A stretch of DNA of 63,975 nucleotides, the filler included, from Acidimicrobiia bacterium (GTDB lineage Bacteria > Actinomycetota > Acidimicrobiia > Spongiisociales > SHLN01), in assembly GCA_041619515.1 (NCBI GenBank). It is 3 parts of 3 records of this genome, joined end to end, with 100 filler letters (N's around TTAATTAATTAA, not from the genome) between each part and the next. Parts side by side here need not be neighbours in the genome. Positions count along the whole stretch, not along the records: positions 1 to 30,253 come from JBFKDW010000031.1; 2 more parts are not named here. One strand, written 5' to 3'. The stretch's first letter is position 1. The number at the start of each line of letters is the position of its first letter. A model generated the notes under the pieces. The model searched no databases, had not been told where the DNA came from, and saw only the letters and a program-made list of their open reading frames with translations. The position numbers and the translations under genes were made by a program. Of the stretch, positions 989-60,102 are shown in pieces.

Positions 989-991
989 CGT

Positions 992-2282: not shown

Positions 2283-2467
2283 TACCAGGATCCCTTTCTC
2301 ACGCCGGGGAGCTCACCGCGATGGGCCAGCTCGCGCACGCATATCCGGCACATGCCGAACTTGCGCATGTAGGCCCGGGGACGTCCACAGCGCCGGCATC
2401 GGTTGTAGGCGCGCACGGCATACTTCGGTTTGCGGTTTGCCTTTGCGATCATTGATTTCTTGGCCAT
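2282..2467 (-). CDS. rpsZ: 30S ribosomal protein S14, short Zn-binding type Z
   Basis: 61 aa, CRRC...CRIC zinc motif. Confidence 0.96.
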
Positions 2468-2470
2468 TGG

Positions 2471-3031: not shown

Positions 3032-3333
3032 AGTTCGCCCTCGCATTTCACACAGATGCGCACCTTTTCGCCCTTGTCGTTGATGCGGCTTCCGATGCGG
3101 GTCGGGCCGCATTTGGGACAGATGATCATCACGTTCGAGGCGTCGATCGGCATGTCCTTGTCGACGATGCCTCCCTGCATGGTCTGTCCACGCGGGCGCT
3201 CGTGGCGCCGGGCGGTGGCCACGCCTTCCACGATGATCCGGTTCTTCTTCGGGATGATCCTGGCGATCTTGGCTTCCTTACCGGCATCCTTGCCGGTGAT
3301 GACTTTCACGGTGTCTCCGGAGCGGAGTTTCAT
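3028..3333 (-). CDS. rplX: 50S ribosomal protein L24
   Basis: KOW motif [22 protein letters not shown]. Confidence 0.97.
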
Positions 3334-3701
3334 CACAGCACCTCCGGGGCGAGTGAGACGATTCGCATGAATTTCTTGTCACGCAGTTCACGAGCCACCG
3401 GCCCGAAGATGCGGGTGCCGCGCGGCTGTTTCTGCTCGTTGATGATCACGCAGGCGTTCTCGTCGAAACGGATGTAGGTTCCGTCGGGCCGACGCCGCTC
3501 CTTCTTGGTGCGAACCACGACGGCCCGGACCACCTCGCCGCGCTTGATGCCGCCCCCGGGGATGGCGTCCTTGACGGTGCAGACGATCTCATCGCCGATC
3601 CCGGCGTACCGGCGGCTGGAGCCGCCGAGGACGCGGATGCACAGGACCTCACGGGCCCCACTGTTGTCCGCTACCTTGAGACGGCTTTCCTGCTGAATCA
3701 T
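3333..3701 (-). CDS. rplN: 50S ribosomal protein L14
   Basis: [16 protein letters not shown]...IVSLAPEVL. Confidence 0.99.
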
Positions 3702-3713
3702 GTGCCTGTTTCC

Positions 3714-3971
3714 TTACTCGGCCCGCTCGACCACTTCGGCCACCCGCCACCGTTTGGTCTTCGAGATCGGCCGGGTCTCCTCCACCCGCACGGTGTCACC
3801 GAGGTGGGCGTCGTTCGACTCGTCGTGGGCATGAAGGCGGGTCTGGCGGCTCACCGTCTTCGCATACTTGGGGTGCAAGACCGAGTTGGTGATTTCGACG
3901 GTAACGGTCTTGTCGCGTTTCTCCGAGACGACGACCCCTACCCGGGTCTTGCGGCGAGCTCGCTCAACCAT
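3714..3971 (-). CDS. rpsQ: 30S ribosomal protein S17
   Basis: [25 protein letters not shown]. Confidence 0.97.
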
Positions 3972-4185
3972 TGCTCTTCTCCTGCTCGTAGTACGCCTCG
4001 ATTTCCATTTCGCGCATGATGGTGGCAATGCGGGCAACCTCCCGCCGCACCTCCGGGAGCCGGGCGGTGTTGTCAAGCTGATTGGTGGCGAACTGGAAGC
4101 GCAGATTGAACGCCTCCTCTTTCGCCTCGACCAGCTTGTCGGCCAGCTCCTCGTACGACAGCTCTCGCAATTCGGAGGCCTTCAT
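3964..4185 (-). CDS. rpmC: 50S ribosomal protein L29
   Basis: [10 protein letters not shown]...[18 protein letters not shown]. Confidence 0.97.
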
Positions 4186-4595
4186 GTCTCCTCCCGGGTC
4201 ACGAACTTCGTGCGCAGCGGCAGCTTGTGGCCGGCCAGGCGCATCGCCTCTCGAGCGAGGGCCTCGTCGACCCCCGACAGCTCGAACATCACCCGGCCGG
4301 GCTTCACGACTGCCACCCAGTACTCAGGATTGCCCTTGCCCGACCCCATGCGCGTCTCGGCCGGCTTCTCGGTGACCGGCTTGTCGGGGAACACGTTGAT
4401 CCACACTTTGCCGCCACGCTTGATATGGCGGGTCATGGCAATACGAGCCGCCTCAATCTGGCGTGCGGTGATCCAGCCGGCCGTCTGAGCCTGCAATCCG
4501 TAGTCTCCGAAGGTCACCTGGTTCCCACCCTTGGTGGTGCCCTTCATCCGGCCCCGGTGCTGTTTGCGGTACTTCGTCCGCTTGGGCATGAGCAT
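4182..4595 (-). CDS. rplP: 50S ribosomal protein L16
   Basis: [27 protein letters not shown]. Confidence 0.99.
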
Positions 4596-4598
4596 CGC

Positions 4599-5621
4599 CT
4601 AGGCCTCCTCCTCGGGTGCCCCGGCACTCTCGTCGGTGGCCTCGGCTGCGGGTGCCTTTGCCTCGGGCTCGGCGCCGCTTGCCTCGCCGTCGGCCGCACC
4701 GGTTTCCAGCTCGTCGGCGGTCTCGTCGGGCTCGACGGCGGGGGTCTCGAGGTCGTCGCTCGAATCATCGTCGGTGTCGTCGTCGAACGAGTCTTTGGCC
4801 TCCGGCCGGCCCTCACCCTTGCGGCGCCCACCGCCGGCTTCGATGAGGCGCTTGCCGCCACCGGCCTCGATGAGCTTCTTGGAACGGTCTTCACCGGCTG
4901 CCACCTCAGCCCTCGCCTTGACGGGGGCGACGTGGGACGGGGCACCTGCGGCCAGGGCGGCTTCGGCGGCGATCTTCTCGCGGGTGGTGGATAGAGAGGG
5001 AACCACGTCGCCCTTGTAGACCCAGCATTTGATGCCGATGGCGCCGACGGTGGTGCGGGCGGTTGCCTCGCCGTAGTCGACGTCGGCTCGCAAGGTGTGG
5101 AGAGGCACGCGGCCTTCTCGATACCACTCACGCCGTCCCATGTCGGAGCCGCCCAGCCTGCCCTTGGCTTCCACGCGCACTCCGAGGGCGCCGGCCTTCA
5201 TGGCGGTTTGCACGGCTCGCTTCATGGCACGGCGGAACGCCACCCGGCCTTGGAGCTGGTCGGCGATACCGCGAGCCAGCAGCGCTGCGTCGGTCTCGGG
5301 GTCCTTCACCTCAATCACATTGAGCTTGACGGGTCGGCCGGTGATCTTGTCGAGCCCGGCCCGCAGCCGGTCTGCCTCAACCCCGCGGCGGCCGATCACC
5401 ACTCCGGGGCGGGCGGTGTGGACGTCGATCTGGATTTGATCGCCGATGCGCTCGATCTCGATTCTGGACACGGCGCCGCGCAGCAGCTCCCCGTTCAAGT
5501 AGTCGCGAATCTCAGAATCCTCGTTGACGAGATCGGCGTAGCCCTTGTCGGCGTGCCAGCGTGATTTCCAGTCGGTGGTTATCCCGAGACGGAAACCGTA
5601 CGGGTGGACCTTTTGACCCAT
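4599..5621 (-). CDS. rpsC: 30S ribosomal protein S3 with long acidic C-terminal tail
   Basis: [13 protein letters not shown] start at 5621; [14 protein letters not shown]. Confidence 0.97.
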
Positions 5622-5962
5622 CAGGCGTCCTCTCGTTCTGCCACACCGACCACGATGTGGCTGGTGCGCTTGTCGATTCTTCCGGCCCGACCTCGTGCCC
5701 GGGGCCGGAACCGCTTGAGTGTGGGCCCTTCGCCGGCGTACGCCTCGGCCACATAGAGACTGTCGACGTCGAGCGCGTTGTTGTGCTCGGCGTTTGCGAT
5801 CGCCGAGTTCAGCACTTTGGCGACGGACTCCGCGGCCCGCCGGTTCGTGAACTCGAGCGTGACGCGGGCCTCCTCCACCGGCAATCCCCGGATCAGATCG
5901 AGCACGCGGCGCACCTTCGAGGGTGACTGGCGAATATGGCGGGCCTCGGCTTTTACGATCAT
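5621..5962 (-). CDS. rplV: 50S ribosomal protein L22
   Basis: [24 protein letters not shown]. Confidence 0.98.
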
Positions 5963-6237
5963 CCTCGCCTCGCTCTGCTGTCACCGGCGTGGCCGCGGAA
6001 GGTGCGGGTAATGGCGAACTCGCCCAGCTTGTGGCCGACCATCGACTCGGTGATGTACACCGGCACGTGCTTGCGGCCGTCGTGCACCGCGATCGTGTGC
6101 CCGACCATCTCGGGGAAGATCGTCGAACGTCGGCTCCAGGTGCGGATGACACGCTTCTCGTTGCGCGAGTTGAGGTCCTCGACCTTCTTCATCAGATGGT
6201 CATCGACAAACGGGCCCTTCTTGAGGCTTCTCGTCAT
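5959..6237 (-). CDS. rpsS: 30S ribosomal protein S19
   Basis: [20 protein letters not shown]. Confidence 0.99.
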
Positions 6238-6271
6238 ATCAATTCCCCCGGAAAGCTGGTTCTACCGTTCA

Positions 6272-7105
6272 TCAGGACCGCCGTTTCTTCGAGCGACGCC
6301 GCACGATGTCGCGGTCGCTTTGCTTGTTCTTCTTGCGGGTGCGCCCCTCCGGCTTGCCCCACGGGCTCACCGGGTGGCGTCCACCCGAGCTCTTGCCTTC
6401 TCCTCCACCGAGCGGATGGTCGACGGGGTTCATGACGACACCCCGGGACTGGGGTCGCTTGCCCTTCCACCGGTTGCGGCCGGCCTTGCCGATCTTGATG
6501 AGCTCGGCCTCGGGATTGCCAACCTGCCCAACCGTGGCCCGGGCGTCGAGCGGGACGTTGCGCATTTCACCCGAGGGCAGGCGCAGCAGCGCAAAGTCGC
6601 CTTCTTTGGCCACCAGCTGGACCGACGTGCCCGCCGAGCGTGCCAGCTTGGCGCCCCCGCCCGGACGCAGCTCGATCGCGTGGACCGACGTGCCGGCGGG
6701 AATGTTGCGCAGCGGCAGCGCATTACCAGGACGGATATCGGCTCCGCTGCCTGATTCGAGGACGGTGCCGACCGTGACGCCGACCGGAGCGAGGATGTAG
6801 CGCTTCTCTCCGTCGTAGTAGTTGAGCAGGGCGATGCGGGCGTTGCGGTTGGGGTCGTATTCGATGGAAGCCACCTTGGCCGGTACGCCGTCCTTGTTGC
6901 GGCGAAAGTCGATGACCCGGTACCGGCGTTTGTGCCCGCCGCCCCGATGGCGCGATGTGATGCGGCCGTGGACGTTGCGGCCGCTGGAGCGGGTCTGGGA
7001 CTCGAGCAGGCTCTTCTCCGGCTTCGAGGTCGTGATCTCGGCGAAGTCCGAGACGGTCTGAAACCGGCGGCCCGGCGACGTTGGCTTGTAGCGCTTGGTT
7101 GGCAT
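6272..7105 (-). CDS. rplB: 50S ribosomal protein L2
   Basis: [27 protein letters not shown]. Confidence 0.99.
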
Positions 7106-7113
7106 GGTCTGTC

Positions 7114-7401
7114 CTATACCTCGAAGATGTCGATCGAGTCGCCGTCGGCGAGGGTCACGATGGCGTGCTTGCGGTCGGGGCGCTTGCCGACTTTGTAGCC
7201 GTAGCGGCGCTTCTTGCCTTTGCGGTTGATGGTGTTGACCTTGCGGACCTTGACTTCGAAGATCTCCTCGACGGCGTGGCGGATCTCGGTCTTGTTCGCC
7301 CGCCGGTCGACGATGAACGTGTAGGCATTGAGGACATCGATGCCGTCATAGGCCTTCTCAGACACGACCGGCTCGATGATGACGTCGCGGGCGCTCCTCA
7401 T
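7114..7401 (-). CDS. rplW: 50S ribosomal protein L23
   Basis: [21 protein letters not shown]. Confidence 0.97.
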
Positions 7402-8120
7402 TCGGCCGTCTCCTCGTCGTCTGCTCCGGCCCCAGCCTCGGCTTCAGCCGGCTGATCGGCAGCCTCCTTGACAAAGTCCTCGTCGCCGACCGAGTAGTCG
7501 CTCGACCCGCTGGCAGAACCGAGGGTCCCGGTGGTGAACACAACAGTGTCGGCCCACAGGACGTCGTATGGGTTGAGCTGACCATTCACGATCACGTTCT
7601 TCAGGTTGCGGAGCGACAGGTAGGCAGTGGTTTCGGAGCGGTCGAGCACCACGAGCACCTTGGCGCCGGTCTCCATCGCGGCGAGGAGGTCCAATGCCCG
7701 CTTGGTTTTCGGCTCGTCCCAATCGAAGCCCTCCACCACCCGGATCTGGCCATCGGCGGCTCTCGCCGACAGGGCCGAACGAAGGGCAAGGCGCTTCATC
7801 TTCTTCGGGGTGCGCTGGGAGTAATCGCGGGGCTTGGGCCCGTGGGCGACGCCGCCGCCGGTCCAGCTGGGGGACCGAATCGAGCCGTGCCGGGCCCGGC
7901 CGAGGCCCTTCTGACGCCACGGCTTGCGGCCTCCGCCGCGCACTTCGGCGCGGGTCTTCGTGCTGTGGGTGCCCGCCCGAGCAGCCGCCAGCTGGGCAGT
8001 TACCACCTGGTGCAGCACCGCCGCGTTCGGCTCGATCCCGAACACGGTAGCGTCCAGCGTGACATCGCCCCTCGGCGAGCCGTCGGCGGCAAACAGCGGG
8101 GCGGTGAGCTTCTCAGCCAC
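7398..8120 (-). CDS. rplD: 50S ribosomal protein L4
   Basis: [29 protein letters not shown]. Confidence 0.98.
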
Positions 8121-8751
8121 CGGCTTTCACCGCCTTTCGCACCACTACAACCGAGCCCTTGGAGCCGGGAACGGCACCGCGCAGCATGGCAAGGCCGCGG
8201 GCGGCGTCCACTTGCACGATGTCGAGGTTCAGCACCGTGGTCTGTTGTCCGCCCATCCGCCCCGCCATCGGCATTCCTTTGAACACGCGAGCGGGAGTGG
8301 CACAGGCGCCGATCGACCCCGGGGCCCGATGCACCCGGTGCACACCGTGGCTGGCGCCCTGGCCGGAAAAGTTGTGCCGCTTCATGACGCCTGCGAAGCC
8401 CTTCCCCTTGCTGATACCGGCGACGTCGGCCTTCTGGCCGACCTCGAGCACGTCGGAGACATTGATCTCCTGACCGACCTTGTACTCACTGGCATCGGGG
8501 ACCCGCACTTCGATGAGATGACGCGCCGGCGGCACGTTCGCCTTGCCGAAGTGCCCGGCCATCGGCTTGTTGACCTTGCGGGGATCCAATTCCCGGTAGG
8601 ACATCTGGATGGCGTCGTACCCATCGGTGGCGACCGTCTTCACCTGGACGACCCGGCACGGGCCCAGTTTGACGACGGTGACCGGAATAGTCCGGGAGTC
8701 CTCGTCGAACAGCTGGGTCATGCCCAACTTCTCGCCGATGAGGGCGTTCAC
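8113..8751 (-). CDS. rplC: 50S ribosomal protein L3
   Basis: [28 protein letters not shown] 8751 overlaps rpsJ stop. Confidence 0.98.
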
Positions 8752-9059
8752 AGCTTGATCTCCACTTCCACCCCGGCAGGCAGGTCGAGGCGCATCAGCG
8801 AGTCGACCGTCTTGGCGGTCGGCTCGAGGATGTCGATGAGGCGCTTGTGGATCCTCATCTCGAAATGCTCCCGCGAGTCCTTGTCCACATGGGGCCCGCG
8901 AATCACGCAATAGCGGTGAATCTGGGTCGGTAGCGGCACCGGTCCGCGGATCTTCGCCTGGGTGCGCACTACCGTTTCGGCGATCTTGCGCGCCGACTCG
9001 TCGACCACTTCGTGGTCGTACGCCTTGAGGCGAATGCGGATCTTCTGACCGGTTGCCAT
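8748..9059 (-). CDS. rpsJ: 30S ribosomal protein S10
   Basis: [28 protein letters not shown]. Confidence 0.99.
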
Positions 9060-9080
9060 TGCTATTTGCTCGTTTCTGTC

Positions 9081-10271
9081 CTATTCGAGGATCTTGGTCA
9101 CGCGGCCGGCGCCGACGGTGCGCCCGCCTTCGCGAATGGCGAAGCGCAGGCCCTCGTCCATGGCGATGGGAGCGATGAGCTCGACGGTCATCTCGGTATT
9201 GTCGCCCGGCATGACCATCTCGGTGCCTTCGGGGAGCGTGACGTTGCCCGTCACATCCGTCGTGCGGAAATAGAACTGGGGCCGGTATCCCGAGAAGAAG
9301 GGGTTGTGGCGCCCACCCTCGTCCTTGGTGAGGATGTACACCTGGGCCTCGAACTTCGTGTGGGGGGTGATGGAGCCCGGCGCGCAGATGACCTGCCCTC
9401 GCTCGACATCATCCTTGCCGGTGCCGCGCAGCAGCAAGCCGACGTTGTCGCCCGCCTCGGCGCTGTCGAGCAGTTTGCGGAACATCTCGACGCCGGTGAC
9501 CACCGTCTTGGTGGTGGGCCTCAGCCCGACGATCTCCACCTCGGTGTTGATCGCCAGAGTGCCTTGCTCGACGCGACCGGTGACAACCGTGCCGCGGCCC
9601 GTGATCGAGAACACGTCCTCGATGGGCATCTGGAAGGGCTTGTCCTTGTCGCGAACCGGCTGCTCGATATAGGTGTCGACAGCTTCCATCAGCTCCAGGA
9701 TCTGGCCGGCAGCGGCCTCGTCGCCCTCGAGCGCCTTGAGCGCAGAGCCTCGGACGACCGGGATGTCGTCCCCCGGGAACTCGTATTCGGTCAGCAACTC
9801 GCGTACCTCGAGCTCTACGAGATCGAGCAGCTCCTCGTCGTCGACCATGTCCACCTTGTTGAGGAATACCACGATGGCGGGCACACCCACCTGCCGGGCG
9901 AGCAGCACATGCTCACGAGTCTGCGGCATGGGCCCATCGGCGGCCGAGACCACGAGAATGGCGCCGTCCACCTGGGCGGCGCCGGTGATCATGTTCTTGA
10001 TGTAGTCGGCGTGGCCGGGCATGTCGACGTGGGCGTAGTGACGATTGTCGGTCTCGTACTCGACGTGGGCGATGGCAATGGTGATGCCGCGCTCTTTCTC
10101 CTCCGGCGCTTTGTCGATCTCGTCGAAGGCGGTGAAGGAAGTCGTGCTGCCGCTCTTTTCCGACAACACCTTGGTGATGGCGGCAGTCAATGTGGTCTTG
10201 CCATGGTCGATATGACCCATGGTCCCAACGTTGACGTGGGGTTTTGTCCGCTCGAACTTTGACTTTGCCAT
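9081..10271 (-). CDS. tuf: Elongation factor Tu
   Basis: [29 protein letters not shown]. Confidence 0.99.
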
Positions 10272-10286
10272 TGCCTTCTCCTCTTC

Positions 10287-12377
10287 CTATTCGCCGCGGG
10301 TCTTCTTGACGATTTCCTCAGCGATTGTGTTTGGGACTTCTTGATACGAATGAAACTGCATGCTGTAGGCCGCCCTTCCCTGGGTTTGTGACCGCAGGTC
10401 GGTGGCGTACCCGAACATCTCCGAAAGCGGGACGAGGGCGGTGACCACCCGGGCGTTCCCGCGCTGGTCCATGCTTTCGATCTTGCCGCGCCGTGCCGAC
10501 AGGTCGCCGATGACGTCGCCCATGTAGTCCTCAGGCGTGACGACTTCGACTTCCATCACCGGCTCGAGCAGCTTAATGCCGGCCCGCTTGGCGGCCGCCT
10601 GCAGCGCCATCGAGCCGGCAATCCGGAATGCCATCTCGTTGGAGTCGACCGCGTGGAAGGAGCCGTCTACCAGCGTCGCCCGCAGGTCGACGAGCGGGTA
10701 TCCCGCCAGCACGCCCCCCTCGAGGGCTTCCCGCACTCCCTTTTCGACGGCGGGAATGAATTCCCGGGGAATGCGACCGCCGGTGATCTTGTCGATGAAC
10801 TCGAAGCCCTCTCCGGGCAGCGCCGGCTCGAGGTTGATCACGGCGTGGCCGTACTGGCCTTTGCCGCCGGACTGCTTGACGTACTTCCCGTCGATCTTCT
10901 CGACGGCCTTGCCAATCGTTTCGCGGTAGGCGACCTGCGGGCGGCCGACGTTGGCGCCCACGTTGAATTCCCGCACCATCCGATCGACGAGAACGTCGAG
11001 GTGCAGCTCGCCCATCCCGGCGATGATCGTCTGGCCGGTTTCCTCGTCGGAGTGAACGACGAATGTGGGGTCCTCTTCCGACAGACGCTGGAGTGCCTGG
11101 CCCAGCTTCTCCTGATCGCTCTTGGTCTTGGGCTCGATGGCCACCGAGATGACCGGCTCGGGGAAGGTCATCGACTCCAGGACGATGGGCTCCCTGATAT
11201 CGCAGAGGGTGTCGCCGGTCTTGGTGTTCTTCATCCCAATCGCAGCGACGATGTCGCCGGTGAAGACGGCGTCGATGTCTTCCTGGGTGGCGGCGTGCAT
11301 CCGCAGCAGGCGGCCGAACCGCTCTTTCTTGCCATTCGTCGAGTTGGCGACCGTGTCACCCTTTTCGACGCTGCCCGAGTACACGCGGAAGTATGTGAGC
11401 TTGCCGACGTAGGGATCGCTCATGATCTTGAAGGCGATGGCAGAGAACGGCTCGTCGTCGCTCGGCTTGCGCGTGAGGATCTCGTCCTCGTTTCCGGGCT
11501 TGAAGCCGGTCATGGGCGGGAGGTCGAGCGGGTTGGGGAGGAAATCGACTACGGCGTCCAGCAGCGGCTGCACACCTTTGTTCTTGAAGGCGCTTCCGCA
11601 CATGACGGGCGTGAATTCGAGCCCGATCGTCCCGATCCGCAGCCCCTCGACGATGTCTTTCTCGGAAAGGAACCCTTCCTCGATGTAACGGGTGAGCAGA
11701 GTGTCGTCGGTTTCGGCGACGGCCTCCATCAGCTCGCCGTGGTAGGTGCGCGCCTGCTCCTCGTACTCGGCGGGGATGTCCAGCTCGTCCCACTCGGCAC
11801 CCAGATCCTCGTTCTTCCACACCAGCGCCTTCATGCGGACGAGGTCGATGACGCCGGCAAAGTCGGCTTCCGAGCCGATGGGGAGCTGGATCACGACCGG
11901 CCGGGCATCGAGGCGCTCCTTGATTGATTCGACGGCGGCATAGAAATCAGCCCCGGTACGGTCCATCTTGTTGATGAAGCAGATCCGGGGCACACCGTAC
12001 TTGTCGACCTGGCGCCATACCGTCTCGGACTGCGGCTCGACACCGGCCACCCCGTCGAACACCGCCACGGCGCCGTCGAGCACGCGCAGCGATCGTTCCA
12101 CCTCGACGGTGAAATCGACGTGGCCGGGAGTATCGATGATGTTGATCCACTCGTCCTTCCACTTTGCCGTCGTGGCGGCCGAGGTAATAGTGATGCCCCG
12201 CTCTTGCTCTTGCTCCATCCAGTCCATGACCGCGGCGCCCTCGTGGACCTCGCCGATCTTGTAGGTACGGCCGGTGTAGTAGAGGATGCGTTCGGTGGTG
12301 GTCGTCTTGCCCGCGTCGATATGCGCCATGATCCCGATGTTGCGGACCTTCTCGAGGGGGTAGGGACGTTTGGCCAT
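10287..12377 (-). CDS. fusA: Elongation factor G
   Basis: [30 protein letters not shown]. Confidence 0.99.
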
Positions 12378-12382
12378 GACGG

Positions 12383-12850
12383 TTACCAGCGGTAGTGGGC
12401 GAATGCCTTGTTCGACTCGGCCATCTTGTGGATGTCGTCGCGGCGCTTGACGGCCGCCCCGGTGTTGTCGGAGGCGTCGAGGATCTCATTGGCCAGGCGT
12501 TCGGTCATCGTGTTCTCGCGACGCTTGCGAGCAAACTCGACCAGCCACCGGACCGCCAGGGTATTGGCGCGACGGGGACGAACCTCGACCGGCACCTGAT
12601 AGGAAGAGCCGCCGACGCGGCGCGAACGCACCTCCACCGAGGGCCGGATGTTGTCGATGGCGCGCTTGAGCGTCAGAAGCGGGTCGTCGCCCCGGCGGCG
12701 CTCTACGAGGGCAAGCGCGTCGTACACGATCTTGCGCGACAACTCCTTCTTGCCTTTCCAGAGCACCTTGTTGACGACCTGGCTGACGAGCACCGATCCG
12801 TACACGGGATCAGGGCGGACCTTGCGGACTTCGGCGGCTGAGCGGCGCAT
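12383..12850 (-). CDS. rpsG: 30S ribosomal protein S7
   Basis: [31 protein letters not shown] overlaps rpsL stop. Confidence 0.98.
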
Positions 12851-13218
12851 TAGGACTTCTTCGATCCGTACCGCGAGCGCGATTGGTTGCGCTCGGTGAC
12901 GCCGGCGGCGTCGAGGGCACCGCGAATCACCTTGTAGCGAATTCCGGGGAGGTCCTTCACCCGGCCGCCGCGGACGAGCACGATCGAGTGCTCCTGGAGG
13001 TTGTGGCCTTCGCCGGGAATGTAGGCGGTGACTTCGACACCGGAGCTGAGCCGCACGCGGCACACTTTGCGCAAGGCCGAGTTGGGCTTCTTGGGGGTGA
13101 CGGTGTAGACGCGTGTGCATACACCCCGCCGCTGGGGGGCCCCGCCCAAACCGGGCGTCTTCTCCTTGTTGCCCTTCGGCGTCCGGCCCTGACGAACCAG
13201 CTGCTGAATGGTTGGCAT
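12850..13218 (-). CDS. rpsL: 30S ribosomal protein S12
   Basis: [29 protein letters not shown]. Confidence 0.99.
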
Positions 13219-13463
13219 GCTTTCTACTCTCTGTCGAGTGCCGGGAGGGCCCGGCCCGATCCACGGGCGAGCCCGCTACTTCCTACTCGAGCCGCCGGAA
13301 GGCAGCTCTCAAACTTGCCGCAGACACGCGCAAAGTCGGCGCTTCACTCTGAGCGAGCAAAACCGCCGACCTATGAGGTCCGTCTCCCGTGGGTCAGTCC
13401 TTCAACTGGTCGGGGTGAAGGACCCTCTGGAAGCGGACGGGTACGCGCTACCGCGGACCGGGA

Positions 13464-21578: not shown

Positions 21579-22277
21579 GTGGACGGTCGCCGCATTCTCA
21601 TCGTGGACGACGAACTTGAGCTTCGCGGCATGGTTCGTCGCTATCTGGAGAGCGAAGGGTTCGAGATAGTGGAAGCATCCAACGGCGCCGAAGGGCTGGA
21701 TCGTATCCGGGCCACGTCGCCGGATCTCGTGATCCTCGACATCGGACTACCGGACGTTGACGGAATCGAGTTGCTGCGCCAGATCCGGGGTCGATCGGAG
21801 GTTCCGGTGATCATGCTGACGGCCCGAGCCGAGGAGATCGACCGGGTAGTGGGACTCAGTGTCGGTGCCGACGATTACGTCACCAAGCCCTTCAGCCCGC
21901 GTGAACTCGTGGCGCGCATCAAAGCGGTACTGCGCCGGGGCCGATCCCTAGCCGGGGGCCCGATCACCGAGGTGGTCGAGTTCGATGGACTCTCAATTGA
22001 CACCGCCGCTCGGACCGTGGTTAGGGACGGTCGGCCTGTTGAGTTGAGCGCCCTGGAATTCGATCTCCTCACGGCCCTCTCCGCCGCCCCCGGACGAGTG
22101 TTCACCCGAGCCCAGCTTCTGGAGCGCGTCTGGGGATTCGACTATTACGGGGTCGAACGGGTGGTTGATGTCCACATCGGCAACATCCGAAAGGTCCTCG
22201 GCGACAACCCTGCCGATCCCAGCTTCATAGGCACGGTGCGCGGTGTGGGGTACAAGTTCGTGGGACGGCCCATGTGA
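21579..22277 (+). CDS. OmpR-family response regulator
   Basis: ILIVDDE, LVILDIGLP, GADDYVTKPFSPREL, TVRGVGYKF. Confidence 0.96.
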   Translation: MDGRRILIVDDELELRGMVRRYLESEGFEIVEASNGAEGLDRIRATSPDLVILDIGLPDVDGIELLRQIRGRSEVPVIMLTARAEEIDRVVGLSVGADDYVTKPFSPRELVARIKAVLRRGRSLAGGPITEVVEFDGLSIDTAARTVVRDGRPVELSALEFDLLTALSAAPGRVFTRAQLLERVWGFDYYGVERVVDVHIGNIRKVLGDNPADPSFIGTVRGVGYKFVGRPM

Positions 22278-23413
22278 CGAAGCGTTTTCGGAGCTTACGC
22301 ACCCGACTGTTCGCTTCCCACATCGCGGTGGTCCTCGTCGGGCTCGTCACGATGCTCGTGATGGGAAACCGCCTCGCACCCACCTTCGTTGACGAACATA
22401 TTCGAGCGATGGAGTCAACAATGGGTGGCTCCATGGGTCATAGCGTCGCCGTCGACCTCGAGACCGGCGTTCTCGGCGGGTTCAACCGGGCGCTCCTGGT
22501 AGCGGGAGCAGCCAGCACAGTAACGGCGCTGCTGGTTGCAGCCTTTGCGTCTGGTCGTGTGTTGCGACCATTGGAAGCCGTCGGGCGTGCCACCCGGAGG
22601 CTCGCCGGCGGCTCCTACGCGGAGCGTGTGTCCATTCCCGATGAAAGCGAACTCGCCGACCTGGCCGAAGACGTCAACCAGCTGGCCGCAGCCCTTCAGG
22701 ACACCGAGCAGCGGCGGATTCAACTGATATCGGAGCTCGCACACGAACTCCGGACCCCTCTGGCCACCATCAAGGGCTACATGGAAGGCCTCACCGATGG
22801 TGTCTTCGAACCAACCGAAGAGATCTTCGCGGCTGCCGGCCGCGAAGCCACCCGACTCGAACGACTGGCCAACGATCTGAGCACACTGTCCCGTTTCGAG
22901 GGGGGCCCCCTCGACCTACGACCCGCACCGGCAGACCTGGGAGCGATCGCCCGTGAGGTCGCAGCCCACCTGGAGCCTCAATTCCGCGACAAGGATGTCG
23001 AGCTCGTGATCGCCGACCAACCTCCAATCCCGGTCGTGGTAGACCCCGATCGGATCGCCCAGGTGTTCACCAACATCCTCGGCAACGCCCTGAGCTATAC
23101 AGCGTCAGGTGGCCGGGTCGAACTCAGCGCAGGAACCGACAACGCAACTGCCTGGGTGACGGTCTCCGACACCGGCAAGGGAATCGATCCGTCACAGCTC
23201 GAAGCGGTGTTTGACCGGTTCTTTCGTGGTGAACGGTCCAGCCCCGGCGGAACCGGCATCGGCCTGACCATTGCCCGCCGAATCGCCCGCCTCCACGGCG
23301 GGGACGTCACTGCCCACTCCGATGGCACCGGCACCGGATCGTCCTTCAAGATCAGTCTCCCGGTCGCCTCCCTCACCCGAGGGAACGAGCCCGGCGAGAA
23401 CATCGCACCGTAA
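22274..23413 (+). CDS. HAMP sensor histidine kinase (CopS/BaeS-like)
   Basis: Two TMs flanking HIRAMESTMGGSMGH; AHELRTPL, NILGNA, DTGKGI, GTGIGL. Confidence 0.95.
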   Translation: MTKRFRSLRTRLFASHIAVVLVGLVTMLVMGNRLAPTFVDEHIRAMESTMGGSMGHSVAVDLETGVLGGFNRALLVAGAASTVTALLVAAFASGRVLRPLEAVGRATRRLAGGSYAERVSIPDESELADLAEDVNQLAAALQDTEQRRIQLISELAHELRTPLATIKGYMEGLTDGVFEPTEEIFAAAGREATRLERLANDLSTLSRFEGGPLDLRPAPADLGAIAREVAAHLEPQFRDKDVELVIADQPPIPVVVDPDRIAQVFTNILGNALSYTASGGRVELSAGTDNATAWVTVSDTGKGIDPSQLEAVFDRFFRGERSSPGGTGIGLTIARRIARLHGGDVTAHSDGTGTGSSFKISLPVASLTRGNEPGENIAP

Positions 23414-23640: not shown

Positions 23641-24999
23641 CTAGGGTCCTGCCGCTATTTCGGCAACCGGCCCGAAGATGAACTCGACTCGACGGTTTTG
23701 TCGGCGACCCTCGACGGTGTCGTTGCTTGCGGAAGGCCGCAGCTCTCCGAATCCGAGCGCTTTCAGCCGCTCGGGTGCGATCCCGCTCGCGATGAGGTAG
23801 TCGACGGCCGCTTGTGCCCTGGCTTCGCTCAGCCCCTGGTTGAATCCCTCTGCGCCGACCGAGTCGGTGTGACCTTCCACCCGGGTACCGAGCGAAAAAT
23901 CGCGGGAGAGCACCGCCACCCCGATGTCCAGTACCTGTCTCAATTCGGGTGTCAATTCAGCACTGCCAAACGCAAACGAGGCGCCTCCCCGAAACGCACC
24001 GGAGGTGACGCCGTCGACGACTTGAAACTCGTAGGCAGGGAACGGCTGCAAGAGTTGGAACACCCCCGGCATAGTGAACATCCAGAAGGACGTGTAGAGG
24101 TCCTCGCCGAGGTCGAGCTCATTGACGACTGCAGACTCGCCATAGGTCGCGACCGCAGCCCCCACGAGGAGCTGGCGAATATCCTCGCTCGGAAGCGTCC
24201 CAGTGAGTGTGAGGATGCCATCGTCCATTCGGGCCTTGAACACCGGTGGCGTGAGGTTGGTAATGGCAACGTTGTTCTCGATGTCGTCAATGCCGAACGC
24301 CTGAGAGACTGCGCCCTCGAATAGGGCGAGATACTCCCCATTCGGCGAGCGGCCGGTGAGCTCCACCCTGTCGCCTTCCACCCGAATCGTCCCGTCGGTG
24401 ATCATCGGCAAAAGACTCAGCCCGAACCGGGCTCCGGCGAGCCATGGCGGAGCCGAGACGTCCTCCGAAACGATGAGGTCGGATTCGACAAACGGGGCGT
24501 ATGCAATATTGGCGGCAGCCAGCAGCTCATCGGCGATTTCCTGGCTAGGCACGACACCGGACAGCAGAAAATCCGGTCCATCGAGCGTCGCCACCAAGCT
24601 CGCCTGCGGGGCCGCCTGGGGAAGCGAGGTGGTGGTTGTGGAGGGAGGTGGCGTCGTAGTTGTCTGGTCCGCTCCCGGCACCGTGGTAGCCGTCGGATTA
24701 TCGGGCGAGGCTTGGCCCGCTTGGACACTCTCAAAGTCGACCCGGCGCACACCTTCGAGCGAACCCACCACCGCCAGCACCGTCTCGGCCGGCACGGTGC
24801 CGACATCCTCCACGATGATGTCGCGGCCCTCCACCCGGAGCTGTACATCGACAATCCCGACCGTCTCCAGGGCCAGGGCAGCTCGCTCCTCGATGTCGGA
24901 TTCGAACCGTTGGACGGCCCATACCGCCGCGACGCCCATCCATGCGACCGCCACCACTATTCCGATTGTCGTACGAGTGCGGATTGACATGAATGTCAC
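23641..24999 (-). CDS. Membrane-anchored BON-like + OmpA-like peptidoglycan-binding protein (ArfA/Rv0899-like)
   Basis: N-terminal TM, repeated LxGxxPS BON-like units, VEGHTDSVG...NQGLSEARA...NRRVEF. Confidence 0.85.
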   Translation of the reverse strand: MTFMSIRTRTTIGIVVAVAWMGVAAVWAVQRFESDIEERAALALETVGIVDVQLRVEGRDIIVEDVGTVPAETVLAVVGSLEGVRRVDFESVQAGQASPDNPTATTVPGADQTTTTPPPSTTTTSLPQAAPQASLVATLDGPDFLLSGVVPSQEIADELLAAANIAYAPFVESDLIVSEDVSAPPWLAGARFGLSLLPMITDGTIRVEGDRVELTGRSPNGEYLALFEGAVSQAFGIDDIENNVAITNLTPPVFKARMDDGILTLTGTLPSEDIRQLLVGAAVATYGESAVVNELDLGEDLYTSFWMFTMPGVFQLLQPFPAYEFQVVDGVTSGAFRGGASFAFGSAELTPELRQVLDIGVAVLSRDFSLGTRVEGHTDSVGAEGFNQGLSEARAQAAVDYLIASGIAPERLKALGFGELRPSASNDTVEGRRQNRRVEFIFGPVAEIAAGP

Positions 25000-25064: not shown

Positions 25065-26114
25065 TCACCTCCAGATCAAGTAGGCAACTACCCCCGCATG
25101 ATCCGAGGGCCAAAGCCCGCTCGGTGTCTTCTGCCACCATCGATCGCCGACGGTGCCGGCGAGCACGAACCGGGGATTCACGCCCTTGCCGAGCCAAATC
25201 TGATCGATGCGCTGGTCGAGCTTCGATTTCTCGTTGTCGAGCTGTTCGTCCTGGCAGCAGGTGAAGCCGGGCCGGTGGCGGAACAGCTGGTCGTTCCACG
25301 CATCTGCAAGCCCGGCCCCTTTGATGATGTCGTACGCCGTGGTACCCGGCTCGGCGTTGAAGTCGCCGAGCAAGACCGTCGGGTGCTCACTCTTGGCCAA
25401 GACCTCGTTGACGAGCTCCTCGGCTTGAGGAATCTGGCACGGCACCGGGGCACTCTCGACCAGACAGATGCCTTCGAAGGTTGTGAAGTCGGGCTCGACC
25501 TCGAGATGCGTGTTGACAAACGTGAATTGCGCGCCGCCCACCTTGGCGTCCACCGAGGTCCAGCCGCGGGTGAACTCGATGCCAAATCCTGGGACGGCGA
25601 AATTGACCCGGTAGTTGCCGCTCCTGGCATTGGACGTGCTGGTGGTTCGAGACCGGGCCAGGATGACGTCCCGGTCGGTGAGGTTGCCGAAGACCGTGAA
25701 GCTGTCATCGAGCGGAAGCGAAACCTCGGCGTTCACAACCTCGGAGGCAACCACGTACTTCTCGCCCCGTGCTTCAAGTGCGTCGAGCAGGATGTCGAGA
25801 TAGTCGAGTTGTGGCTGGCCCGGGACAGGCGTCCCGTCTGCAAAGGTCACGCTGAGGTCGGACACTTCCTGCAGTCCGATCACGTCGGGATTGCGCCGAT
25901 CGATCTCGGCGGCAATGGCCTGCGCGCGCTCGGGGAAGTTGGTCTTGACGATTGTCGGGAGGATGAGACCCGGATTGAGGCTCCCGAGATCGGCGCCGAC
26001 GTAGAGGTTGTAGGTCATGGTCGTCAATACCGAGAACCGATGTGACGCTCCTGCCGGTGCAGCCAGTCCCGCCACTAAGAGCCCTGTCACGAAAAGAACT
26101 GTGAACCTACGCAT
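25065..26114 (-). CDS. Secreted endonuclease/exonuclease/phosphatase-family protein
   Basis: Signal peptide; MTYNL, DVIGLQEV, NTHLE, LGDFNA, RIDQI, PSDHAGV. Confidence 0.9.
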   Translation of the reverse strand: MRRFTVLFVTGLLVAGLAAPAGASHRFSVLTTMTYNLYVGADLGSLNPGLILPTIVKTNFPERAQAIAAEIDRRNPDVIGLQEVSDLSVTFADGTPVPGQPQLDYLDILLDALEARGEKYVVASEVVNAEVSLPLDDSFTVFGNLTDRDVILARSRTTSTSNARSGNYRVNFAVPGFGIEFTRGWTSVDAKVGGAQFTFVNTHLEVEPDFTTFEGICLVESAPVPCQIPQAEELVNEVLAKSEHPTVLLGDFNAEPGTTAYDIIKGAGLADAWNDQLFRHRPGFTCCQDEQLDNEKSKLDQRIDQIWLGKGVNPRFVLAGTVGDRWWQKTPSGLWPSDHAGVVAYLIWR

Positions 26115-26248: not shown

Positions 26249-27169
26249 TCAGGTTTGGCTCTCGCTGGTCGGTTGCCGAATCGCGATAACGACGAACTCG
26301 GCAGGTTTGAGCGGGGCGAAGCCGAGGACAATGTTCACGACTCCCTGGTCGATGTCTGCTTGCGTCGTGGTCTCGCGGCCGACCTTCACGAAATACGCCT
26401 CTCGCTGTGTGGTGCCCTGGAAGGCCCCCTGCCGGAACAGGGTGTCCATGAAGGTGCCGATGCTCAACCGGAGCTGTGACCAGAGCGGCTCGTCGTTCGG
26501 CTCGAAGACCGCACACTTGATGCCCCGGTAGATGCTCTCCTCGATGAAGAGGGCAGTCCGGCGAACGGGCACATACTTGTACTCGTCGGCCAGTTCATCG
26601 GCACCCCGCAGCGTGCGAGCTCCCCACACCACCGGTCCGGCCGATGGCAGGATGCGAACCGAGTTGGCGCCTCGCCTGTTGAGGCCGTCGTTCTCCGCAT
26701 CGGTGAGCAGATACGCCAGGTCCCGAACGCCGATCATCGTGGCCTCGACTCCGGCCGGCGCCTTCCACACGCCCCGGCGAGCGTCCGTCCGGGCGTACAC
26801 GCCTGCGATGGTCCCGCTGGGCGGCACGGCACGTGTCTGGCCGGGCCGCAGGGGGTCTGTGATCACCAGCCACGGCCAGTAGACGGCGGCGTAATTGGAC
26901 TTGGGAAGATCGGTACCGTTGATCAGCGTTTCCAGAACCACCGGGGTGTCGGTTGTCACCGGAGGGTCCACGACCAGGAACGCCCGTCGCTTCTCGCAAA
27001 GGGCGGCCGCTTCCGCCAAGACCGTCGGATCAGAGACCCCGGGCACGCACAGCACATTGAAGAGGTCCACACCGTCCAGCGCGGCGAGACGGCCGGTCGG
27101 GCCGCTCGTGTGACCGGCGGCCCCACCGTCCTCCATGCCACGCCAAAACCCGTCGTCAAATCCGTGCAC
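26249..27169 (-). CDS. Contractile tail-sheath protein, C-terminal core only (eCIS-type)
   Basis: YAAVYWPWL, PPSGTIAGVYARTDARRGVWKAPAG, VWGARTL, KYVPVRR, VFEPND, GFAPLKPAEFV; in-frame TGA immediately upstream of the GTG. Confidence 0.9.
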   Translation of the reverse strand: MHGFDDGFWRGMEDGGAAGHTSGPTGRLAALDGVDLFNVLCVPGVSDPTVLAEAAALCEKRRAFLVVDPPVTTDTPVVLETLINGTDLPKSNYAAVYWPWLVITDPLRPGQTRAVPPSGTIAGVYARTDARRGVWKAPAGVEATMIGVRDLAYLLTDAENDGLNRRGANSVRILPSAGPVVWGARTLRGADELADEYKYVPVRRTALFIEESIYRGIKCAVFEPNDEPLWSQLRLSIGTFMDTLFRQGAFQGTTQREAYFVKVGRETTTQADIDQGVVNIVLGFAPLKPAEFVVIAIRQPTSESQT

Positions 27170-27198: not shown

Positions 27199-27726
27199 CT
27201 ACGAAGTGCCGCCACAGACCCAGGCATTGGGCGGGAACCCGGTATACCCGAAATCGAAGAGAGAAACACCGAGGAGGAGGGAGCCGTTGAGGGCCAGGCA
27301 CTTGGCATCGGCTGCGGCCGAGTCGTCGGCGACGACCAATGCGAGGCCCGAGCCCGACGCCAGTCCGCAATTTCCGTCTGTGGTGTTGGAGGCTTGAATG
27401 TTGCTCGGCGTATCCACCGGGCCCGCGTACAGAAGATCTTGTTTCGAATCGGAAACATTCTCGTAGCAGCCAGGGGCCGGACCGACCGGCTCGGCGATGC
27501 AGTCCTCGCCGAAGACGAACCCATCCATGCCGGGAACCGGGTCACCAATCAACCCGTCGCCGTGGTTCTGATGGGCGGCAACGGCGTTGTCCGAAACCTC
27601 GATGGCATGGACGGCGCCGTTGCCCGTCTGATGGCACACCACCGTCTTGGAAGCCTCGGCCCCGGCCGGCACCGCCGCAGTCAACACCAGCAGCACCGCC
27701 ACGACCGAAGCAGTAGAGATTCTCAT
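27199..27726 (-). CDS. Secreted hypothetical protein with CH...HxxHGD motif
   Basis: Signal peptide; KTVVCHQTGNG...AVAAHQNHGD; six Cys in total. Confidence 0.75.
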   Translation of the reverse strand: MRISTASVVAVLLVLTAAVPAGAEASKTVVCHQTGNGAVHAIEVSDNAVAAHQNHGDGLIGDPVPGMDGFVFGEDCIAEPVGPAPGCYENVSDSKQDLLYAGPVDTPSNIQASNTTDGNCGLASGSGLALVVADDSAAADAKCLALNGSLLLGVSLFDFGYTGFPPNAWVCGGTS

Positions 27727-27826
27727 GACACCCGACCCCTTTCCATGTTCATCCAGACGGCATGCTAGCCCTGGAAGAAAGCGGAAATCAAGATGGGCTC
27801 GGCAGCCGTGCCGCAGGCGTGTGCGG

Positions 27827-28243
27827 TCAGCCTGTCTCGCCGGCGCCGGCCGGCCGCTCGCTCGTGCCCAGGAGGTTCGCCACCTGTCCGACGAGGGTGG
27901 CGATCCGGAACGGTTTCTCGACGAACAGGTTGGCGCCTCGCCTCAGTGCCGCCGCCTCCCAATCGGATTGGCCGTGAGCGGTGACGATGATGACCGGCAC
28001 GCCGGCCGCATCGTCGATCGATCGGAGCTCGGCAAGGATGTCCCAGCCGCTGACGCCCGGCAAGGCAATATCGAGCAACACGAGATCGGGTTGCACATCG
28101 CGAAAGCGTGCCAGGGCATCCCGCCCATCGGTGACGCCGACAACGACGACATCGAGCGGCTTGAGCGCCTCGCCGACGAGCGCCTGGATGCTCGGGTCGT
28201 CCTCGACGAGCAGCACCTTGTGTATGCGCCGTGGAGAGGTCAT
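27827..28243 (-). CDS. Stand-alone CheY-like receiver-domain response regulator
   Basis: VLLVEDD, LVLLDIALPG, IIVTA, EKPF; ATGA overlap with the upstream gene; no output domain. Confidence 0.92.
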   Translation of the reverse strand: MTSPRRIHKVLLVEDDPSIQALVGEALKPLDVVVVGVTDGRDALARFRDVQPDLVLLDIALPGVSGWDILAELRSIDDAAGVPVIIVTAHGQSDWEAAALRRGANLFVEKPFRIATLVGQVANLLGTSERPAGAGETG

Positions 28244-30253
28244 TGGCCGTCCACCCTCTTGAGCCGGCGGGCGTAGTCTCGCTGCGGCCCCGAAACGGCC
28301 CGGTATTGCACGACCGCGCCGGGCTCGAACCACCCGTGCTGGCCCCGGCGGAGAGCCGTGCTGTGGACGAAGACGTCCTTGCCGTTGTCGTCTGGTCGGA
28401 TGAAGCCGAAGCCCCGTTCGGCGTCCCACCGCACGACGGTCCCGGTGTGCGAACGGCCTCCTTTGAGCAGTGGAAACAGGCTCACCCTGCCGACCGTGGC
28501 GAGCAGCAGGAGGAGCGTTGTGATCACCAGCATCGGGATGCGAAGCGCCCCGGTCGTGAAGGCGGCCGCCCGGCCCATGATCACGAGCGTTCGTTTGACG
28601 ACGGGCCGGGTATCGCCCTCGACGAACGCCCCGCCGTCCGCAAAGCCGGCGCCTTGCTGTACGAGGAGATCGCGTCGCGTCAGCGCGCCCGGGTCTGTGA
28701 CCCGAACGACGAACTGAATTTCCGCGCCAAGGCCGGACTCGTCTGTGACGACCGCCGAGACGGGATAGCTGCCTGGGCTCGGGCGAACGGAGCCCGCCCA
28801 GCCGATGATGCCGGTGATGGGATCGATCTCCAACCCGGTCGGTGGCCTGCCGGCAAAGCTGTAGCGGAGCGGACCGGCCGGTTGATCGGGGTCGAAAGCG
28901 GTCAGCTGCACGACCCATCCCTCTCCCGAGGTGAACGCCTGGTCGGCGACGGGAACCAGCACCGGCGCCAGGTTGACCTCGGCAACCGCCACCTGGAACG
29001 CAGTGGTGGCGGTGGAACCACCTGCCGCAACCCCGACCACCACTTCGAACACAGCGGGGCCCTGGTTCTCGGCGGGCGTCCAGCTGAACACTCCGGTCGT
29101 CGGGTTGATGCTCGCCCCGGGCGGGCCGGTGAGGAGGTGGAAGACGGGTGGATCATCGGTGTTGCGGGCGACCACGCTGACACTGAGAGGCGTGAGCTCG
29201 TCGACATGGTGCAGTGCAATCGGCGCAATCTCCAGTGATGGAGGAATCGGAGCCGGCGGAAGGGGGGCGCTGGGCTGGAGGACCACAACGGAGAAGCTGG
29301 CGGGGACGGTAGAGGATGCGTCGCTCACCAACAGGGTGACGGTGTGGGTCCCGATCTGCTCCGGGCCCGGAGTCCAGCCGAACACTCCGCCGGCGCCGAG
29401 TACAGCGCCAGCCGGAGAGCCTGAACCGAGGGCGAAGACCAGTGACGCTGGGGGCGTGTCGACGTCGGTGACGGCTACCGAGAACCCCAGCGATGCGCCG
29501 TATTCGAGGACCCTGTCCCCCACCGGTGCGACGACCGGGGCGTCGTCGACAGGGTCGACCGTCACCGTTACCGTGGCGGATGCCCGGCCACCCAGCCCGT
29601 CCCCGACCGCATAGGAGAACGAGTCGGGCCCGGCAAAGTCCGGAGCTGGAACGTACCGCAGGCCGGCCCCCTCACGGACGATCGTCCCAGCCATCGCCGA
29701 CAGCGCATCGTGTGACACAATCGTCAGCGTGTCACCGTCGGCGTCCGAGTCGTTGGCGAGCACCGCGACGAGAGCCCCGGGCCCGTCTTCGACGGCGACT
29801 GCAGAGTCGGCGATGGCAACCGGCAGCCGGTTGTTGTCGACGATGATCCACGTGAACGAGTCGGTGGCGTCCAGGCGGGGTGTGCCCTCGTCGGTGACGG
29901 TGACGGCCACCGTATAGGGAGAGTCGGCGGCCGCGGAGAAGGAAACGGTGCCGCTGATGAGACCCGATGCAGGGTGGATGCTCAGGCCGGGGGGCAGTCC
30001 CGTAGCCGCGAAACCGAGGGCCTGGCCAGGAAGGTCGGGATCTCGGGCCCGAACTGAAAAGCTGATGCCGGCTCCCTCTCCATCGCTGCGATCGAGCAGG
30101 TCCTCGTCGAAAACCGGTGCCTGGTTGGTTTCGGCGACGGTGACGGTGACGGTCTCAGAATCGGTCAGGTTGGGCGTGCCATCATCGGTCACCACCACAT
30201 CAAAGGAATACACCCCCGGCCCCTGCCCCTCATCCGGAGTCCACGTGAACACA
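28240..30253 (-). CDS. Ig/cadherin-repeat surface protein with TM helix and C-terminal cold-shock domain (5' end cut by contig edge)
   Basis: He_PIG-like GLPPGLSIHPASGLISGT, Big_9-like VLANDSDADGD...DSFSYAVGDG, TM IPMLVITTLLLLLATVG, CSD GTVVRWDAERGFGFI...DVFVHS. Confidence 0.88.
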
Positions 30254-30353
30254 NNNNNNNNNNNNNNNNNNNNNNNNNNNNNNNNNNNNNNNNNNNNTTA
30301 ATTAATTAANNNNNNNNNNNNNNNNNNNNNNNNNNNNNNNNNNNNNNNNNNNN
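30254..30353. other. Artificial contig linker
   Basis: N-run + TTAATTAATTAA (stops in all frames) + N-run. Confidence 0.98.
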
Positions 30354-60002: not shown

Positions 60003-60102
60003 NNNNNNNNNNNNNNNNNNNNNNNNNNNNNNNNNNNNNNNNNNNNTTAATTAATTAANNNNNNNNNNNNNNNNNNNNNNNNNNNNNNNNNNNNNNNNNN
60101 NN
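60003..60102. other. Artificial contig linker
   Basis: N-run + TTAATTAATTAA + N-run. Confidence 0.98.

Follow-up and report, generated by a model that had tools for sequence, protein, structure and literature searches.

A predicted membrane-anchored cold-shock protein at a contig end

We analysed a 63,975-nucleotide (nt) stretch of DNA (the window) from the Acidimicrobiia genome assembly GCA_041619515.1 (3.1 Mb, 146 contigs, 95.65% complete). The window is made up of three contigs separated by N-containing spacers (30254-30353 and 60003-60102, each N(44)-TTAATTAATTAA-N(44)), across which no feature was read. At the right end of the first contig (G000:C31, window positions 1-30253) lies a gene that, judged from its sequence, encodes the last 670 amino acids (aa) of a large type I membrane protein, at least 1100 aa long in full, with immunoglobulin (Ig)-like repeats, one transmembrane (TM) helix and a terminal cold-shock domain (CSD). 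We consider this Ig-TM-CSD architecture almost certainly real, and the protein very probably works together with a histidine kinase whose gene directly precedes it in relatives. The parts of the gene, and the receiver gene that follows it, are listed below in the direction of transcription.

28693..30253, minus strand: predicted ectodomain fragment, aa 1-520; one partial and about five whole Ig-like repeats (He_PIG, Big_9/cadherin-like, PKD-like; Pfam and translation)
28546..28692, minus strand: predicted extracellular juxtamembrane segment; helix at aa ~521-538, variable linker, R-T-L-V-x-M-G helix at aa 554-569
28492..28542, minus strand: single TM helix IPMLVITTLLLLLATVG (hydropathy scan; predicted helix 91-107; alignment A2)
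28447..28491, minus strand: basic, predicted cytoplasmic linker GRVSLFPLLKGGRSH, of fixed length (alignment of tails)
28264..28446, minus strand: CSD, aa 603-663 (Pfam CSD), then seven residues and the stop TGA at 28240-28242
27827..28243, minus strand: stand-alone receiver, 138 aa plus stop (open reading frame (ORF) 27830-28243; Response_reg 3.5e-25, aa 10-120)

The frame at 28243-30252 (minus strand) is open over 670 codons and continues into the contig end, in line with the initial annotation, which had described a long unbroken ORF with its 5′ end lost, about six repeats, a single hydrophobic helix and a terminal CSD. All of these are present. Within aa 1-520, Pfam matched He_PIG (2.1e-33, 115 bits, five stretches) and Big_9 (4.3e-33, 114.5 bits, four stretches), as well as Cadherin_4, Cadherin_5 and Cadherin; with roughly five whole repeats and one partial repeat, the count of about six is a fair one. 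The CSD (PF00313) scored 43.5 bits against a cut-off of 27 (E = 3e-11), and 48.2 bits in the genome scan. The NCBIfam models for CspA, CspE and CspD also match the CSD residues, all far under their full-length cut-offs, as is expected because the domain is divergent. The consensus of RNP1 is K/R-G-F-G-F-I and that of RNP2 is V-F-V-H-F. Both motifs that had been pointed out in the domain, RGFGFI and VFVHS, are found; the final Phe of RNP2 is Ser in the window protein, at a position that is not conserved across the family.

A structure model built from an alignment of 30 rows (mean predicted local distance difference test score (pLDDT) 81) gave, in order, an extracellular helix (41-58), a low-confidence linker, the R-T-L-V-x-M helix (74-89), the TM helix (91-107) and a confident CSD barrel of five strands and OB type (strands 121-186, pLDDT ~95). 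The best PDB sequence match to the CSD is E. coli CspA (1mjc, 1.3e-9), which is also the top Foldseek hit of the predicted domain (TM-score 0.87, root mean square deviation 1.8 Å over 67 columns). The TM helix begins with a nearly invariant Pro and is followed by G-R-V/I (alignment A2), and the Arg of the juxtamembrane motif is kept in 28/28 rows covering the motif (alignments A2 and A4). No LPXTG-like motif precedes the TM helix, and 83 residues that include a folded domain follow it; a C-terminal sorting signal of the LPXTG/sortase or PEP-CTERM type is thereby ruled out.

We compared the region 27700-30253 with Logan contigs from four public marine or soil metagenome runs (three studies). 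Contigs from three of the runs, including one of another study, span 27700-29126 or more with no indel and no joint. Two of them, X1 (3696 nt) and X2 (2346 nt), possibly from the source samples, extend to 30142. The contig from the different study (X5, 1435 nt) covers 27700-29126 with three substitutions, 0 indels and 0 joints, and spans the receiver, the CSD, the TM helix and the final repeats in one piece, so that the junction between TM helix and CSD, where a chimeric join or a frameshift had been a concern, is crossed by independent sequence. Read depth rises from ~12 to ~55 over the last 141 nt (30113-30253), 4-5x the remainder in four runs, and the contig breaks at 30253 because it ends in a multi-copy repeat unit.

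Topology and the nucleic-acid-binding face

Full-length relatives start with a signal-peptide-like segment, in which basic residues are followed by a hydrophobic core and an Ala-rich site resembling a cleavage site (hydropathy scan and inspection), and have exactly one further strongly hydrophobic helix, directly before the CSD. The segment after this helix is basic (G-R-x...R-x-R), the cytoplasmic part has an isoelectric point (pI) above 10 in 23/30 tails (11.1 in the window protein), and 15-16 residues separate the TM helix from the CSD in 30/30 aligned tails. The sequences imply that the ectodomain is outside and the CSD inside the cytoplasm, as had been proposed, because a signal peptide, a single TM helix and a basic linker are combined with Ig/cadherin-like repeats of extracytoplasmic type.

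In the alignment, the CSD retains those aromatic and His residues with which cold-shock proteins (Csp proteins) contact nucleic acid. The F31-equivalent is Phe in all 30 aligned tails and the H33-equivalent His in 28 of them; the F12-equivalent is aromatic in 29/30, and the F18-equivalent is Phe or Tyr in 26/30.

An invariant histidine kinase neighbour

An orthologous histidine kinase is encoded directly upstream of the big gene at every locus with upstream DNA (10/10 plus a further 12/12, or 22/22; local profiles), including one locus (G571) at which kinase and big gene both look decayed. These kinases match a family-specific profile at E-values of 1e-101 to 1e-298, as compared with 5e-17 for the window's unrelated kinase. 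The kinase stop is overlapped by ATGA/GTGA in 14/19 loci. The protein (~480 aa in total) has two TM helices flanking a helical domain of ~150 aa, followed by HisKA and HATPase_c, as in class I histidine kinases; all 15 sequences compared have intact H, N, G1 and G2 boxes, with or without an adjacent receiver.

The initial annotation could not see the kinase because its gene is here on a different contig (C25). There, at the contig end, we found a kinase gene (HisKA 1.5e-16, HATPase_c 1.1e-18) whose stop-to-stop frame has hydrophobic helices at aa 24-42 and 193-211. The kinase TGA overlaps the start codon (ATG) of a second ORF, which stays open for 447 codons up to the end of the contig and codes for a signal peptide, a stretch resembling DUF6923, and He_PIG repeats. 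Over 407 aa, this second ORF shares 51% identity with the N-terminus of a tail-bearing protein in G127 that is 1257 aa long. The end of the C25 ORF (…SLSGEPAGAVI) and the start of the window piece (VFTWTPDEG…) match successive parts of one He_PIG unit, with at least 13 nt missing between the contigs and compatible reading frames. Because the He_PIG register fits and the N-terminus resembles that of the G127 protein, the C25 ORF is likely the 5′ half of the window's Ig-TM-CSD gene. The ends of C25 and C31 share no exact sequence overlap, and neither C141 nor C112, tried as bridges, joined them. C141 (2578 nt), which is one long open frame of Ig repeats, or further repeat units may lie between the two pieces.

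The stand-alone receiver

The receiver ATG (28241-28243) lies over the TGA (28240-28242) of the Ig-TM-CSD gene, which is the ATGA overlap reported earlier, and Response_reg is the sole Pfam family above cut-off in its 138 aa, in keeping with its description as output-less. Across 10 aligned receivers (alignment A3) the acidic pocket residue D15, the phospho-acceptor D58, T88 and K110 are invariant or nearly so. An in-frame receiver start overlaps the upstream stop in 7/8 loci examined. A receiver gene follows directly downstream on the same strand in 13/27 loci; G004 has a tandem duplicate of it, in G127 the receiver precedes the kinase, in G553b it has a convergent orientation, and at the remaining loci no receiver stands beside the big gene within the DNA fetched. 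The coupling to a receiver in the initial annotation thus holds as adjacency in the window and does not extend to a constant partnership, since the constant partner is the upstream kinase. A complex prediction for the cytoplasmic tail (A2 residues 108-190) with the receiver (A3), run without controls, scored 0.00 against a mark of 0.32 and speaks neither for nor against binding.

Family and distribution

With the last 151 aa as query, 9/41 close relatives including this genome had the TM-CSD tail, each time closing an open frame (252-2050 aa); eight other matches among the 41 were to the CSD alone, in small frames. All nine tails align readily (alignment A1), and the stop TGA is overlapped by ATG or GTG in 9/9. 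We searched a profile of the tail against 1.84 billion representative proteins and obtained 30,780 CSD hits. Among the best 150 representatives, 25 carry the whole tail (profile ~2-15 to 123-130) at the C-terminus and two more are fragments. He_PIG/Big_9/cadherin-like repeats together with a C-terminal CSD were present in 16 of 18 representatives scanned, the other two being short Pro-rich fragments. The database names are automatic ('cold shock CspA family protein', 'cold shock domain-containing protein [Acidimicrobiia bacterium]', 'Ig-like domain-containing protein'), and the named members are Acidimicrobiia metagenome-assembled genomes. A word-indexed homology search with residues 530-670 (targets of 368-1173 aa) gave no match, and the ESM Atlas returned generic CSD clusters with scores of at most 0.81.

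In a class-wide sample the tail occurs in 7/401 genomes, all from the window's own order. The juxtamembrane/TM profile by itself (A4) matches 22/301 genomes of that order, in which long Ig-repeat ORFs ending in the tail give the homologues with the same fusion that were sought: 7/13 plus this genome in family f1, 10/75 in f2, 2/8 in f9 and 2/22 in f12. Matches are absent from the other eight families of the order sample, including 0/74 and 0/41. The order tallies count two unpublished genomes (G017 and G028), neither of which matched or contributed sequence to the analysis. In the genomes searched the family is, by these profile matches, confined to four families of one order. Of the 29 A4 match sites, 28 run straight into a CSD, and none was found with another cytoplasmic domain on the same juxtamembrane/TM module; the 29th (G573:C109, E = 9.8e-5) is weak, looks unrelated and is probably spurious. 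With 28/29 sites continuing into the CSD, the juxtamembrane segment and TM helix make up, together with the CSD, an obligatory unit that arose once.

Members differ in the distal head of the ectodomain, which can be a BNR/sortilin-like propeller, a lamin-tail domain (LTD), a DUF6923-like region, or an unnamed module after the signal peptide. The last has the pattern Y-R-D-x-F ... W ... W-x-E-x-G-E-S-D-G-P ... C ... C, has no Pfam match, and is carried by G006, G325, G390, G300b, P0054, P0087, P0010, P0139, P0086 and P0156. It is a candidate ligand-binding head.

Paralogous kinase plus Ig-TM-CSD modules, two or three per genome, occur in six f2 genomes (G300, G524, G528, G553, G557 and G573). 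In G524, G528, G553 and G557 there is a long form (~2200-2300 aa) with a downstream receiver and a short form (~1000-1230 aa) with no same-strand receiver. No receiver accompanies the long form of G573 within the DNA fetched; in G300 each of the two copies is a short form and lacks a receiver. Three loci have disrupted frames. At G004:C39 (L021) the start region of the big gene (9813-10592) is in another frame than the body (4793-10123); in G032 (L023, 7158-7548) the stop-overlapping ATG is out of frame with the receiver domain, which begins at profile position 26; and in G571 (L079) the kinase is split across two frames and the big ORF is only 340 aa. These possible frameshifts could be sequencing errors or decay.

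Stand-alone cold-shock proteins and the genomic neighbourhood

The only other CSD match in this genome (G000:C16:25979-26146, L045) is divergent (31.6 bits) and lacks the RNP1 aromatics, and no canonical stand-alone Csp was found in this genome or in the seven others of the genus searched. Among the 41 relatives, no genome has both the fusion and a high-scoring small Csp. The idea that the fusion replaces stand-alone Csps was rejected, as G127 and G135, of another family, carry both.

The remaining features recognised on the first contig are as follows.

27199-27726, minus strand: secreted protein, 175 aa, no Pfam match
26249-27169, minus strand: phage-tail-sheath-like ORF, 306 aa (Phage_sheath_1 1.5e-11, Phage_sheath_1C 3.7e-08)
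25065-26114, minus strand: secreted endonuclease/exonuclease/phosphatase-family protein
23644-24999, minus strand: OmpA/BON-domain protein
21579-23410, plus strand: unrelated pair of OmpR-type response regulator and HAMP-HisKA-HATPase kinase
404-13275, minus strand: str/S10/spc ribosomal-protein region (S12, EF-G, EF-Tu, S10, L4, L23, S19, L22, L16, L14, S8, L6, S5)

Because the contig carries the str/S10/spc region, the module is placed on the chromosome. The genes for the 175-aa secreted protein, the endonuclease/exonuclease/phosphatase-family protein and the OmpA/BON-domain protein, which lie downstream on the strand of the module, are not conserved beside it in relatives; in G006 and G003 a THAP4/nitrobindin-like gene follows. 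The sheath-like ORF is short for a sheath, or a lone remnant, and no other contractile-tail genes were recognised near 26249-27169.

A candidate signalling module and its alternatives

We propose that the kinase, the Ig-TM-CSD protein and the receiver would form one signalling module. The giant ectodomain, with its variable distal head, would bind a surface or polymer, and the conserved juxtamembrane/TM segment would make the protein a co-sensor of the kinase. At its short, constant distance below the membrane, the CSD would act as a tethered output or adaptor that binds single-stranded nucleic acid, its access to RNA being set by the state of the kinase and, where one is present, by the phosphorylated receiver. 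For this three-part module with a membrane-tethered CSD as output or adaptor, a mechanism inferred as a whole from sequence, we put the chances slightly below even. The route suggested in the initial annotation, from contact, mechanical load or proteolytic release to RNA binding or localised translation, with possible tuning by the receiver, is likewise conjectural. The more specific picture of a bacterial counterpart of cadherin or Notch receptors is doubtful; in it, contact of the ectodomain with a particle or polymer would lead, jointly with kinase and receiver, straight to the capture, release or remodelling of specific mRNAs at the membrane by an RNA-binding CSD tail, and the output of transmembrane signalling would be post-transcriptional instead of DNA-binding.

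Several observations weigh against this proposal. The adjacency of the genes is equally expected if the two-component system merely regulates expression of the adhesin. About half of the loci lack the receiver, which therefore cannot be indispensable for the central mechanism. RNP1 has Leu at its F20-equivalent in 10/30 tails, and the W11-equivalent is Trp in only 13/30, so that some family members may bind nucleic acid weakly or bind another ligand. The C25-C31 join rests on synteny and repeat register, not on overlapping sequence; all family members come from metagenome-assembled genomes; and among the sequencing runs found none was an RNA data set with the locus.

Known outputs of bacterial transmembrane signalling are DNA-binding regulators, second-messenger enzymes, sigma/anti-sigma pairs and motor switches. 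If the proposal holds, a nucleic-acid chaperone would be added to these as a membrane-tethered output, and a large adhesin-like surface protein would be physically tied to the cell's RNA. The hosts are abundant uncultured marine Acidimicrobiia, for which attachment to particles or polymers is a central part of their ecology. With 83 aa for the tail, 138 aa for the receiver and ~480 aa for the kinase, the parts are small and tractable in a heterologous host.

The protein could instead be a co-sensor only, with the CSD as a compact, basic, fast-folding anchor or as a docking surface for the DHp domain of the kinase or another protein. The pairing with the kinase is invariant (22/22 loci), the CSD lies at most 16 residues from the membrane, near the kinase HisKA that begins ~30 residues after TM2, and CSDs can bind proteins, as in the CspC-endolysin complex (PDB 8h1i). 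The drift of RNP1 in part of the family fits as well. We regard this explanation as unlikely, as the residues of the nucleic-acid face are the best conserved in the domain (F31-equivalent 30/30, H33-equivalent 28/30), and an anchor would not need them.

Notch and the anti-sigma factors are analogues for a second alternative, regulated proteolysis, in which cleavage at the R-T-L-V-x-M segment would be followed by an intramembrane protease freeing the ~85-aa CSD as a soluble RNA chaperone or antiterminator. The strong conservation of the extracellular juxtamembrane motif (Arg 28/28) and the Pro at the start of the TM helix point this way, as does the lack of a canonical stand-alone Csp in the searches of this genome and genus. 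A one-pass protein with a cytoplasmic regulatory domain is, moreover, typical of substrates of regulated intramembrane proteolysis (PMC10556640). The constant length of the TM-CSD linker (15-16 aa in 30/30) argues for fixed membrane geometry and not for release. Pfam recognised no protease among the genes of the conserved core and matched no autoproteolytic or site-1 domain in the juxtamembrane region (coverage of SEAL domains by the library is uncertain), where the model has two short helices, and the constant attachment of an intact kinase would be left unexplained. Release by proteolysis is therefore quite unlikely.

In a third alternative, the protein is an ordinary TM-anchored adhesin, the neighbouring two-component system controls transcription only, and the CSD is an evolutionary passenger. 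Ig, cadherin, BNR and LTD modules are typical of adhesins, and two-component genes often adjoin their targets. Against this, the receiver next to the gene lacks a DNA-binding output domain; translational coupling within one operon links the kinase, the adhesin-like gene and the receiver; the tail never occurs without the CSD (28/29 sites, the exception being the weak match noted above); and the CSD is under visible purifying selection. We consider this explanation improbable. Lastly, a chimeric assembly or a frameshift joining an adhesin fragment to a small csp gene, a suspicion raised by the position of the gene at a contig end of a fragmented 146-contig metagenome-assembled genome, is refuted, with next to no probability remaining, by the identical fusion in 22 genomes and 25 database clusters and by the independent-study contig that spans 27700-29126 with three substitutions and no indel.

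Comparison with known systems

We found no paper on a membrane-anchored Ig-repeat/CSD protein in the collection of open-access full texts and preprints searched, and the databases carry automatic names only, which agrees with the earlier statement that no characterised protein with this architecture is known. The domain itself is that of the CspA family (E. coli CspA, 1mjc; B. subtilis CspB), a five-stranded barrel with RNP1 and RNP2. CspA-family proteins are soluble and ~70 aa long, whereas here the domain makes up the last ~70 aa of a predicted type I membrane protein, 15-16 residues below the membrane, with a strongly basic tail and with the final Phe of RNP2 lost.

A CSD is likewise joined to a hydrophobic region in the CSD-DUF1294 proteins; DUF1294 is membrane-spanning, and we know of no kinase association of these proteins. 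PMC7404187 notes that such proteins exist. CSD-DUF1294 proteins have the CSD at the N-terminus, DUF1294 at the C-terminal end and no ectodomain, whereas the window protein has a C-terminal CSD and no Pfam match to DUF1294 at E ≤ 1, and it does not belong with them.

In the actinobacterial three-component systems MtrAB-LpqB and CseABC, a gene next to the two-component pair encodes an extracytoplasmic accessory protein, a presumed modulator of the kinase. The conserved adjacency of the accessory gene with kinase (22/22) and receiver (13/27) genes is similar here. The accessory proteins of those systems are lipoproteins without a cytoplasmic domain, in contrast to a giant one-pass protein with a cytoplasmic CSD; the gene order here is kinase-accessory-receiver, and the receiver has no DNA-binding output.

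ToxR and CadC are one-pass regulators in which a TM helix links extracellular sensing and cytoplasmic regulatory parts. RsgI-type anti-sigma factors with SEAL domains (PMC10556640) similarly join an extracellular sensing part to a cytoplasmic regulatory domain through a single TM helix. Proteins of the RsgI/ToxR type are N-in/C-out with an N-terminal anti-sigma or winged-helix domain, whereas the Ig-TM-CSD protein is predicted to be N-out/C-in, with a C-terminal CSD and an obligatory kinase neighbour. The eukaryotic cadherins and Notch have a repeated ectodomain, one TM helix and a short cytoplasmic effector tail. The likeness to these is in layout only; the tails are not homologous, and the bacterial module is wired to a histidine kinase. 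Every part of the Ig-TM-CSD system comes from a known family and the combination matches no characterised system that we found: set beside its nearest counterparts, it is a three-component signalling module with an unprecedented cytoplasmic domain on its accessory protein.

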